Translations under genes and position numbers: made by a program | The notes under the pieces: generated by a model | Told to the model about the DNA's origin: nothing | Seen by the model: the letters and a program-made list of their open reading frames with translations, nothing else | Databases searched by the model: none | Shown: in pieces, positions 41,701-43,850 of the stretch | Layout of the letters: every line of letters starts with the position of its first letter | Position numbering within the stretch: position 1 is the stretch's first letter | From: a virus | Virus record (IMG/VR): IMGVR_UViG_3300021255_001652 | Location: 1-48,714 of that record | DNA length: 48,714 nt | Reading direction: 5' to 3' (one strand)

Positions 41701-41973
41701 ATGAATCTAAAAGTAAGATTTAAAAATCCAGTATTTATTGCTCAATTTATTCTTGCAATTTTAACTCCAATTCTTGCTTATGCAGGTTTAACAGTTCAAG
41801 ACCTTACCTCTTGGCAAGCTCTTGGAGAAATTTTACTTGGAGCTATTCGTAATCCATATGTATTAGGTCTTATTGTAGTTTCAGTATGGAATGCTTTTAA
41901 TGATCCAACAACCGCAGGAATTACTGATAGCGCACAAGCAATGACATATGAAAAACCAAAAACTAAAGAATAA
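41701..41973 (+). CDS. holin (phi-LC3 / LL-H family)
   Basis: MNLKVRFKNPVFIAQ ... two TM segments ... DPTTAGITDSAQA matches the phi_LC3 holin family pattern; no TAG; TAA stop. Confidence 0.75.
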   Translation: MNLKVRFKNPVFIAQFILAILTPILAYAGLTVQDLTSWQALGEILLGAIRNPYVLGLIVVSVWNAFNDPTTAGITDSAQAMTYEKPKTKE

Positions 41974-41992
41974 ATTTTATATTCTTATTATC

Positions 41993-42027
41993 AGGCAGAG
42001 TTTTATCTCTGCCTTATTTTTATTTTA
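41993..42027 (+). terminator. rho-independent terminator between holin and endolysin
   Basis: aggcagag tttta tctctgcct + T-run. Confidence 0.6.
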
Positions 42028-42042
42028 ATGGAGATAAAACAT

Positions 42043-43785
42043 ATGAAAACTAATTTTTCATCAGAACAAGAATTTATTAAAACAATTGCCCTATCTGCTC
42101 AAAAAGCTTGTAAAAGATATGGATATTTACCATCTGTATTAATTGCTCAAGCTTGTTTAGAAAATGGATATGGTATTCCCTCATATTGGGATAATCAAGA
42201 AATTAAATATCTTTTACAATATAATAATATGGTTGGCCAAAAGGCTGAATTATTAACGTCTTCTTGGTATGATAAATCAGTATGGCCTGGTAAAAGTTTT
42301 AATAAAAATACACCAGAAGTTTATTCTGGTCAACAAGTAACTATTAAAGATAGCTTCCGTATTTTTGATAATATAGAACAAAGTTTTTGTGATTTTATTT
42401 TATTTTTACTTTATGCCAGTAATTATGGTTATAATGGTAAGCCAAAATATGGAAAAGAAGTAGTTAATATTAAAGATCCAAAAAAATTAATTTAGGAAGT
42501 TAGTAAACGAGGATATGCAACTGGTCCAACATATCCATCTTCTGTTATGAAAATTATTAATAAACATAATTTAACGCAATATGATGATTTATCAAAAATT
42601 AAAGCTTCTAATTATGTTCCTAATGCTTTAAAATCAAATGAAACAATAAAAGGTAAATAGACAAATAATATTGTTAAAAAACCAATTTATGATATAACTT
42701 CAGCAAATCTTTCTCAAATTCCCGCCCAAAGAGGTAATAATCCTATTGAATGGATTGTTATTCATTATTTAGGAGTTCCAAATGCGGACAATCCATACTT
42801 ATATGGAGGCGGATATGGAGGTCATTATAATATAAAAAGAAATGGGGATATTTATAAAGCGGCAGATCCAAAAACTGCTGTTGTTTGGCATTGCGGTGGA
42901 GGTCTTCAAGGCCCAAATGGTCATCAATATTATAAAATTTGTACTAATTATAATAGTATTGGGATTGAAACTGGAATATGCTATACTGATACTTCTGAAA
43001 AAAATCCCGATGCCAATAGTAACAAGTGGTATTATACAACAGAAACTCAATAGTCATTAATTTATTTAGTTGCTAAATTAATGAAAGATTATAATATTGA
43101 TATTAATCATGTAATTCGTCATTATGATGTAACTGGAAAAATTTGTCCAAATCCTTATGTAAAAAATAATAAATTAAAAACCTCCTGGACTTGGGGCGAA
43201 TTTAAAAATAAATTAATTTCATATTGTAAGAATGAAAATTATAATACAATTTTATTACAAGAGTCAACTCAAAATATCCAATCAAAAACCACTTAGTATC
43301 AATCTTATTTATCTATAGGATCAACAGGCAATGCAGTAAAAGAAATGCAAACTATATTAATTAAATTAGGATATTCTTGCGGTTCTTCTGGAGCAGATGG
43401 TAACTTTGGTAATAATACAAAAAAAGCATTAGAGAAATTTCAAAAAGAAAATAATTTAGTAATTGATGGTTTATATGGATCAAAATCAAAAGAAAAACTA
43501 TAGGAACTTTATAAAAGAATAACTACAAAAAAAGAAAATAATACTTTATCAATTGATCCAAATATAAAAATTGATTATGCTAAATCTTATAATAAAGATA
43601 TCGCAAAAACTTATAAAACAACAGCAAAATTAAGATTGCGGGCGGGGGCTGGAACATCAAAAACAATTATTACTATAATTCCAAAAGGAGATTAGGTAAC
43701 ATGTTATGGTTACCATACTGGTCATTGGTATTATGTAAAATATGGTAATTTAATTGGTTTTTGTTCTAATAGATATTTATAGTAA
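42043..43785 (+). CDS. multidomain endolysin: GH73-like glucosaminidase + amidase_2 (PGRP) + PG_binding_1 + SH3b; 7 in-frame TAG
   Basis: ORF-track 42028..42495 and 43081..43296 in the same frame; TAGs at 42493, 42658, 43051, 43294, 43501, 43693, 43780 then TAA 43783; motifs LIAQACLENGYG, WIVIHY ... WHCGGG ... VIRHYDVTGKICPNPY, LGYSCGSSGADGNFG. Confidence 0.8.
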
Positions 43786-43805
43786 ATACTATATTATTTT
43801 TATAT

Positions 43806-43850
43806 AAGGAATTTAACAGCTAAAGCTGTTAAATTCCTTATTTTTTTTAT
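43806..43850 (+). terminator. rho-independent terminator after endolysin
   Basis: ggaatttaacagc taaa gctgttaaattcc + T8. Confidence 0.65.

Follow-up and report, generated by a model that had tools for sequence, protein, structure and literature searches.

The window, as we call the whole stretch of DNA analysed here, comprises the 48,714 nucleotides of the IMG/VR virus record IMGVR_UViG_3300021255_001652 and has a G+C content of 31%. On its plus strand it carries a holin gene (41701..41973) and, directly downstream, an endolysin gene (42043..43785) in which seven of the 580 sense codons before the final TAA are TAG; the subject of this text is how TAG is read in these two genes and in the rest of the window. 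The holin is a protein of 90 amino acids (aa) that matches the Pfam family Phage_holin_1 (E=1.8e-25). It has three Glu codons and was found to be free of TAG, as a sequence-only reading of the region had stated. A Phage_holin_1 holin beside a gene for a Glucosaminidase/Amidase_2 hydrolase is the composition of a phage lysis cassette, and the two genes were adjacent in every relative that has both of them on the DNA that was fetched. An identical holin protein is present on 10 public contigs, and the holin was found on contigs from sheep and cattle rumen. The related contigs are about 125-145 kb long and reach up to 155 kb, and the best explanation for the window is that it is part of a rumen phage with a Gram-positive (Bacillota) host. 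A megablast search with 23.7 kb of the window against phage records gave no relative, and a tblastn search with the endolysin against phage records returned distant lysins only (≤36% identity).

The endolysin gene was delimited by translation, Pfam matches and comparison with homologues. All four of its domains and all seven TAG codons were found in one reading frame, which bears out the earlier description of a single four-domain gene with in-frame TAGs. Glucosaminidase/GH73 (aa 18-177, nt 42094-42573) is followed by Amidase_2 (aa 232-371, nt 42736-43155), PG_binding_1 (aa 428-481, nt 43324-43485) and SH3_3 (aa 530-580, nt 43630-43782). TAG codon 151 (42493..42495) lies inside GH73, at a position with Lys or Ser in the orthologues; codons 206 (42658..42660) and 418 (43294..43296) lie in linkers, codon 337 (43051..43053) inside Amidase_2, codon 487 (43501..43503) just past PG_binding_1, where the closest orthologue (L032) has GAA, and codon 551 (43693..43695) inside SH3_3. 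Codon 580 (43780..43782) is the last sense codon before the TAA and corresponds in the orthologues to AAA, AAG or CAG followed by TAA. Codon 337 is the only TAG site that the window has in common with relatives (L032, L033, L013 and L014), the rest being mostly at other positions. The remaining orthologues have GAA, AAA or AGA there, and among the 120 homologues listed this column holds E in 84, K in 29 and Q in 6 cases, the Q possibly being an artefact of translation with genetic code 15. The number of TAGs per orthologous endolysin ranged from 0 in L012, 2 in L032 and 4 in L034, L010 and L011 to 6 in L013 and L014 and 8 in L033. The 120 homologues listed were all single proteins of similar length, most of them with the same domain families, and all four domains were present in the top ~30, which argues against the segments being separate genes. 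Relatives of the endolysin swap in NlpC/P60 and other C-terminal modules. A GH73 glucosaminidase joined to an amidase and to wall-binding modules (here PG_binding_1 and SH3) is also seen in Gram-positive phage endolysins and autolysins, and compared with multidomain endolysins in general there is nothing unusual about the protein except its TAG codons.

A terminator scan of the plus strand identified three hairpins with T-runs around the two genes. T1 (41641..41680, hairpin 41641-41671, 14-bp stem) separates the upstream gene (41055..41615) from the ribosome-binding site of the holin, and it is found at the same place in L032, L034 and L010-L014 with partly changed stems. T2 (41993..42024, hairpin 41993-42014) has an 8-bp stem with 5 G-C pairs and ends 28 nt upstream of the ATG of the endolysin, and a GGAG ribosome-binding site lies in this interval; across 6 relatives its position is kept and 4 of 9 pairs show compensatory changes on both sides. 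On the 3' side of T3 (43804..43851, hairpin 43804-43841, 17-bp stem) lies the region's best sigma-70-like site (43855-43883), which precedes the RNase H gene. Each of the three thus has the G+C-containing hairpin and the U-tract of an intrinsic terminator at a position conserved in relatives, where the stems have undergone some compensatory changes. The proposed terminator-flanked cassette is to this extent confirmed as a prediction, but equally strong hairpins follow two further genes of the same strand block (37352-37380 and 40166-40194), so the lysis genes share this punctuation with others. Between T1 and the holin and between T2 and the endolysin there was no space for a promoter and no sigma-70-like match. 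Holin and endolysin should therefore be reached by read-through, and the proposed insulation of the lysis genes is not supported. In phage lambda the lysis genes S-R-Rz are located behind the terminator tR' and are read through Q antitermination. The window is similar in having its lysis genes directly behind terminator-like hairpins with no promoter between, and it differs in that neither an antiterminator nor a late promoter was identified; judged from this geometry only, transcription of both genes would depend on read-through or antitermination.

When TAG was read through, the longest open reading frame (ORF) of the window increased from 2499 to 8727 nt and the ORFs of 100 codons or more in the six frames rose in total length from 43.4 to 56.6 kb. 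Genes that are fragmented under genetic code 11 were restored with TAG as a sense codon, giving a coherent phage gene map: there are genes for the tail and baseplate, one for a tape measure of 2906 aa, one each for a RuvC-like nuclease and an integrase, the early block, the lysis pair, an RNase H gene and a split GyrB-like topoisomerase with GIY-YIG endonucleases. In total, 89 in-frame sense TAGs were spread over 18 genes. All window genes were compared at codon level on the DNA with about 50 related loci, and the resulting 457 alignment columns that contain TAG had in-frame TAGs opposite sense codons of the homologues, with homology on both sides. The tail and baseplate genes (1080..9830, plus strand) hold 1, 9, 3, 0 and 4 sense TAGs. 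The late genes on the minus strand (17524..32696) are rich in them and were used for decoding TAG; they include the RuvC-like gene (17524..18012, 5 TAGs), the gene of a 1604-aa tail protein (18819..23633, 10 TAGs) and the tape measure gene (23976..32696, 36 TAGs).

The situation is different in a block of nine early/middle genes (33434..41615, plus strand), which has 201 Glu codons and no sense TAG. Among the products are metallophosphatases, a protein with the 'shoulder' domain of the major vault protein (MVP), Pyr_excise, an RNA ligase and an AAA_33 kinase. At the late-gene rate of TAG, the probability of finding none in this block is 0.869^201, or ~6e-13. One of the early genes has a TAG (40557..40559, plus strand) at exactly the position at which TAA is found in 7 orthologues. 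The ATG of the next gene is at 40561, one base past this TAG, and reading through it would lengthen the product by 14 residues, in an overlap with the next gene. From these comparisons TAG seems to be retained as a stop in the early genes. A block without sense TAG, together with a TAG at an orthologous TAA stop, indicates that the early genes are written in the standard code and that the sense use of TAG is confined to the other genes, for the most part late ones.

To decide which residue TAG stands for, the codons opposite TAG were counted. In nine orthologous endolysins TAG was opposite GAA/GAG in 9 of 18 columns, AAA/AAG in about 5 and CAA/CAG in 2, and over the whole comparison the partners in orthologues were GAA 90, GAG 21, CAA 37, CAG 4 and AAA 23. 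An empirical log-likelihood placed E above Q by more than 200 units, and the order E > Q > K was obtained in every identity bin. As controls, the ordinary codons GAG, GAA, CAG, CAA, AAG, AAA, GAT and AAT were treated as if they were unknown, and the true residue was returned in 72-92% of the columns. The pairwise counts were limited to verified genes, given that a comparison of all ORFs is contaminated by non-coding frames (TAG<->CAG and TAG<->TGG transitions); at 85-95% identity they came to 28 for E and 12 for Q, and at 75-85% to 56 for E and 13 for Q. Reading the TAG columns directly from the 120 listed database homologues was also tried and proved misleading, as the Gln found there looks like a gene-caller artefact. 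Gln stands at TAG positions in the public proteins P0001, P0007, P0017 and P0020 and relatives (loci L032-L034). For three homologues, translation of their own DNA under code 11 does not yield the stored protein, and Gln at TAG columns of such proteins is therefore probably a result of gene calling with code 15.

Multiple alignments of 25 gene families were then searched for TAG-containing columns with a conservation of 90% or more. There were 63 such columns, in which the conserved residue was Glu in 46, Gln in 6 and another residue in 11, compared to a background of 3.3% Glu and 3.0% Gln in conserved columns without TAG. More families favoured E than Q (9 vs 1; sign test, p ~0.02). In the endolysins of L013, L014 and L033, a TAG is aligned with the Glu of FlgJ 'AALETGWG', the catalytic glutamate of GH73; the same residue is Ala in PDB entry 3K3T as compared with the wild-type 2ZYC. 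The Pfam Glucosaminidase score of L013 was 69.1 bits with E at the TAG, 64.4 with Q and 63.5 with K, and the RuvC protein of L075 exceeded the Pfam cut-off with E only. In the RuvC-like family, 5/5 TAGs of the window are opposite Glu, save for one Phe in L072 at codon 153, and in relatives 'MEEV' is written 'MXXV' and 'NDDEAD' is written 'NDDXAD' (X denoting TAG). A search of the RuvC-like protein against PDB gave no usable match.

No tRNA gene was found in the window, and its first 40 nt, with which an upstream tRNA array was sought, had no exact match in IMG/VR. Relatives have arrays of 10-24 tRNAs just upstream of the counterpart of the window's left-edge gene; every array includes one CUA tRNA, and such a tRNA is present in the arrays of at least 12 related contigs. 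The CUA tRNA of L037/L198, L196 and L197 is well formed (66 bits on the Rfam tRNA model), and this L037-type tRNA lies 130 nt downstream of tRNA-Glu(UUC) and tRNA-Glu(CUC). Its D-arm GTCAAGCGGTT(T)AAGAC was searched irrespective of isotype in 185,579 bacterial genomes, and 110 of the 111 called tRNAs that matched were tRNA-Glu, almost all from Bacillota. With these tRNA-Glu the L037-type CUA tRNA has in common the GGCCCC/GGGGUC acceptor stem, G1-C72, G2.U71 and a 4-nt variable loop. Crude isotype hidden Markov models also ranked Glu first (28.4 vs 23.5 for Gln in L037; 37.7 vs 16.5 for the next isotype in L041), and the L037-type suppressor is by these features of the tRNA-Glu type and not of glutamine identity. 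The bacterial amidotransferase GatCAB recognises U1-A72 of tRNA-Gln and rejects tRNA-Glu. Given the G1-C72 and the tRNA-Glu-type build, a suppressor charged with Glu should therefore stay Glu. Typing of the suppressor by plain similarity (phage tRNAs; blastn against annotated phages) was abandoned, as it gave ~70% identity to several isotypes, and a search of the suppressor against a plasmid collection gave no match. Among other relatives, L061 has a tRNA with the anticodon UUA (5781-5855; ochre-suppressor-like) near its CUA tRNA, ARAGORN calls a tRNA with the four-base anticodon 'taaa' in the human-gut relatives L046-L058 (e.g. L049 2700-2773), and two relatives have a tmRNA (L064 7627-7904 and L067 11935-12279).

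Our reading of these results is that the early block uses the standard code, TAG is a sense codon mostly in the late genes, the holin and endolysin form an ordinary lysis cassette and TAG means Glu, and we put the probability of this combination at roughly 0.7. As for the amino acid itself, the comparisons with relatives make glutamate the most likely candidate by a good measure. It is likewise probable that UAG has come to mean glutamate in a lineage of ~125-145-kb rumen phages of Bacillota, by means of a suppressor derived from tRNA-Glu. The carrier of glutamate would be a phage tRNA(CUA) that has a body of the tRNA-Glu type and presumably is charged by the glutamyl-tRNA synthetase of the host and ignored by GatCAB, and lineages would move in and out of the recoded state, leaving a Gln-enriched footprint behind. 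The clade L069-L073, compared with the tape measure region of the window (23976-32696), is poor in TAG (1.5-4.3 TAG per 1000 aa vs 12 in the window tape measure) and rich in Gln. Of the window's ordinary Glu sites, 19 are Gln in this clade, as against 9 sites of the reverse kind, and Gln is also found there at 8-9 TAG sites of the window. From these codon changes it looks like a lineage that is leaving the recoded state via TAG->CAG->CAA.

Several observations weigh against glutamate. The majority partner of TAG columns is Glu in 49%, Gln in 18% and Lys in 10%, compared to a self-match of 78-83% for GAA/GAG. The seven TAGs of the window's own endolysin are in variable columns that are uninformative on the residue, and its Pfam scores differ by at most 0.8 bit between E, Q and K, while the window's own RuvC-like protein scores 24.3 with Q and a little less, 23.1, with E. 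Gln-type sites are clustered in the tape measure at aa 1915-2192 in the comparison with L069-L073, and the TAGs of one relative (L038/L072) are about as frequent at window Gln sites as at window Glu sites. Differences in TAG count between orthologues track the Gln count more than the Glu count, TAG-poor orthologues being richer in Gln, a trend that is driven largely by a few non-independent tape measure comparisons with one TAG-poor clade. On the side of the tRNA, the window itself has none, and the CUA tRNAs of several relatives have divergent bodies that the crude models do not call Glu; one of these is the divergent and untyped CUA tRNA of L199, the closest long contig (~84-86% identical). 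A minority Gln-like signal at TAG sites is thus unexplained.

These points are what an ordinary genetic code 15, with TAG as Gln and the Glu signal as an artefact of E/Q similarity, would build on. Gln is the second commonest partner of TAG (CAA in 37 cases), it dominates in the tape measure segment just mentioned and it is more abundant in TAG-poor orthologues; in addition, the public gene calls of relatives were apparently made with code 15, and the literature on phages with a code unlike that of the host has, for TAG, Gln only. We regard this explanation as quite unlikely all the same, since conserved TAG positions align far more with Glu than with Gln (46 vs 6), a catalytic Glu is among the residues written as TAG, and in close pairs TAG faces GAA, from which it differs by two bases, much more frequently than it faces CAG or CAA. 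Moreover, Glu partners at ordinary Gln codons make up just 3-5% in the controls, and the best-typed suppressor tRNAs are Glu-like with G1-C72. A mixed or lineage-dependent decoding, be it Glu and Gln side by side at TAG (e.g. by partial amidation through GatCAB), a split between lineages or an older Gln phase, would better accommodate that Gln partners are about five-fold commoner at TAG than at real Glu codons, that E-type and Q-type sites are spatially clustered and that the bodies of the CUA tRNAs are heterogeneous among relatives. This too is rather unlikely, though somewhat less so than pure code 15: the invariant and catalytic Glu positions written as TAG favour mostly Glu, and the Gln excess can also be explained by loss of TAG through CAG to CAA, as in the TAG-poor clade with its 19 E>Q vs 9 Q>E changes.

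Two further explanations concern the lysis genes themselves. If the TAGs were real stops, in a gene that has decayed, been split into small genes or been mis-sequenced, the standard-code annotation of the same DNA, in which the endolysin is cut into pieces of 150, 71 and 52 aa, would be correct. This is already contradicted and has next to no probability, as none of the fragments other than the first has a start codon with a ribosome-binding site (in agreement with the sequence-only reading), the four domains are intact in one frame, the identical 1743-nt gene with all 7 TAGs was obtained in two independent metagenome assemblies, which speaks against sequencing errors, and in 17 other genes frame and homology likewise run across the TAGs. 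The sequence-only reading had itself proposed a dedicated lysis safeguard, with a deliberately TAG-free and separately terminated holin, a TAG-loaded endolysin and truncated isoforms of the latter. The TAG share of the endolysin is indeed fairly high among the larger genes, 7/(7+23 Glu codons)=0.23 vs a mean of 0.131 in TAG-bearing genes, three conserved terminator-like hairpins fall inside 2.2 kb, and preferential recoding of lysis genes has been reported in two other phage groups. However, this excess in TAG share falls short of significance (p=0.10), and this value and the 0/3 of the holin come from a single window, which is too small for gene-family statistics. With only three Glu codons, a holin without TAG is the likelier outcome (P=0.66), and the holin orthologues of L010, L011 and L034 carry 2 TAGs (aa 43 and 84), both at Glu sites of the window, so a deliberate avoidance of TAG could not be upheld. 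Furthermore, the TAG counts of the endolysin vary from 0 to 8 in relatives with a single site common with the window, and terminators of the same kind are found behind other genes. Three of the four domains contain TAGs, and given that TAG positions are neither conserved nor at domain borders (337 being within Amidase_2 and 551 within SH3_3), domain-truncated isoforms are not supported. The related claim that the endolysin is truncated without suppression stands insofar as the full-length protein needs TAG decoding; the first TAG is however inside the Glucosaminidase envelope and not after that domain. Altogether, we consider a dedicated safeguard improbable. Holin and endolysin make up a lysis cassette of the ordinary kind, in which the endolysin gene belongs to the 18 that bear TAG, and the TAG contrast between the two genes is what is expected by chance in a phage with genome-wide recoding, with no demonstrable design.

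The idea of a timer for lysis can be retained in a more general form. Recoding of late and lysis genes has been described by Borges et al. (bioRxiv 10.1101/2021.08.26.457843), who proposed that it delays late and lytic proteins, and the TAG-free early and TAG-bearing late genes of the window fit this idea. What was not found is a design specific to lysis, the 89 TAGs being distributed over 18 genes, and the situation is that of the published late genes gated by stop-codon recoding and not of a particular holin/endolysin arrangement. Full-length four-domain endolysin would need the decoding of six internal TAGs, and its yield would rise steeply, with about the sixth power of the per-site suppression, once the phage CUA tRNA becomes abundant. 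Lysis would in this way be gated together with all other late functions.

Some other features of the window were noted. The protein with the MVP 'shoulder' domain (Pfam MVP_shoulder, E=2.6e-22) has 830 aa and is encoded in the early block (34847-37339), its gene having a TG-extended promoter-like site (34784-34812) on one side and a strong terminator-like hairpin (37352-37380) on the other. A set of RNA-repair-like genes is found beside the tRNA array (L199 8915-11110) and in the early block (window 1-822 and 38929-41615): the left-edge gene encodes a DUF2828/DUF7788 'RNA-binding protein' (PHROG 850), to which the early block adds the RNA ligase, the AAA_33 kinase and the metallophosphatases. 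Five TAG-free genes (76-822, 15558-16451, 34847-37339, 38929-40155 and 40561-41055) have a G+C content of 0.35-0.46 and prefer CAG over CAA, while their neighbours have a G+C content of 0.22-0.30 and use CAA almost exclusively. This patchiness in composition and codon use suggests a mosaic or recent foreign origin of the five genes. A tyrosine integrase gene (10199-11200, minus strand; PHROG integrase, E=6e-58) lies between tail genes and contains one in-frame TAG; integrases of recoded prophages are reported to avoid recoded stops in a published survey of recoded phages. The GyrB-like topoisomerase gene is split into an N-terminal part (45315-46871) and a GyrB_C part (47880-48302), with a GIY-YIG endonuclease ORF containing 4 TAGs between them (47052-47762) and another GIY-YIG ORF at 44558-45322. 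Its counterpart in L034 is a single uninterrupted gene of 638 aa, and an Rfam search of the window gave no match, and hence no intron match at the split gene.

The system has much in common with the TAG-recoded gut phages assigned to code 15. In both, structural and lysis genes contain in-frame TAGs and an early block keeps to the standard code, a phage CUA tRNA is located in tRNA arrays (here, those of relatives), the host is expected to use the standard code and a delay of late and lytic proteins is the proposed role. Unlike in those phages, for which Gln is given, TAG in the window aligns chiefly with Glu and the best-typed suppressor has a tRNA-Glu body. In crAss-like and Agate phages lysis genes are reported to be preferentially recoded, whereas the lysis genes of the window are not detectably more recoded than its other late genes. 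Code 15 was confirmed by proteomics in two crAss-like phages (Peters et al., PMC9523058), occasional alignment of TAG with Glu has been reported as a secondary pattern in Lak phages, and only TAG->Gln and TGA->Trp were seen where the code of the phage differs from that of its host (Borges et al., bioRxiv 10.1101/2021.08.26.457843). The ~136-kb phAss group was assigned Gln by tRNAscan-SE and TerL alignments (Babkin et al. 2023, PMC10607447), and annotation tools for recoded phages assume Gln at TAG. By description, phAss-1/Phassvirus resembles the window and its relatives in having ~135-kb genomes, tens of tRNA genes, CUA suppressors, structural genes with TAG and a holin in which recoding is limited to part of the group; it differs in its human gut source and in the assignment of Gln. 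No report of a TAG->Glu code in phages was found in the phage-recoding literature open to full-text search. We know of no catalogued viral or prokaryotic code in which TAG is Glu. The nuclear code of peritrich ciliates (NCBI table 30), in which TAA and TAG are Glu, is similar in that a stop codon has been reassigned to glutamate, and it is different in being eukaryotic and nuclear, in covering TAA and TAG genome-wide and in having neither a temporal switch nor competition with a host code.

If our reading is true, code-15 translations place Gln at ~1% of the residues of late proteins, catalytic glutamates included, and lysins and enzymes taken from public gene calls (e.g. for enzybiotic work) carry Glu->Gln errors, some of them catalytic, as in GH73. 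Glutamate at TAG would be a second amino-acid outcome of amber reassignment in phages, and the glutamyl-tRNA synthetase of the host would be co-opted as well, and not just the glutaminyl-tRNA synthetase (GlnRS) or the tryptophanyl-tRNA synthetase. Most Bacillota are without GlnRS and make Gln-tRNA by amidating Glu-tRNA. In such hosts, whether a CUA suppressor ends up with Glu or Gln could hinge on a few features of the tRNA, and a switch of this kind would offer a testable route by which the meaning of a codon may drift.

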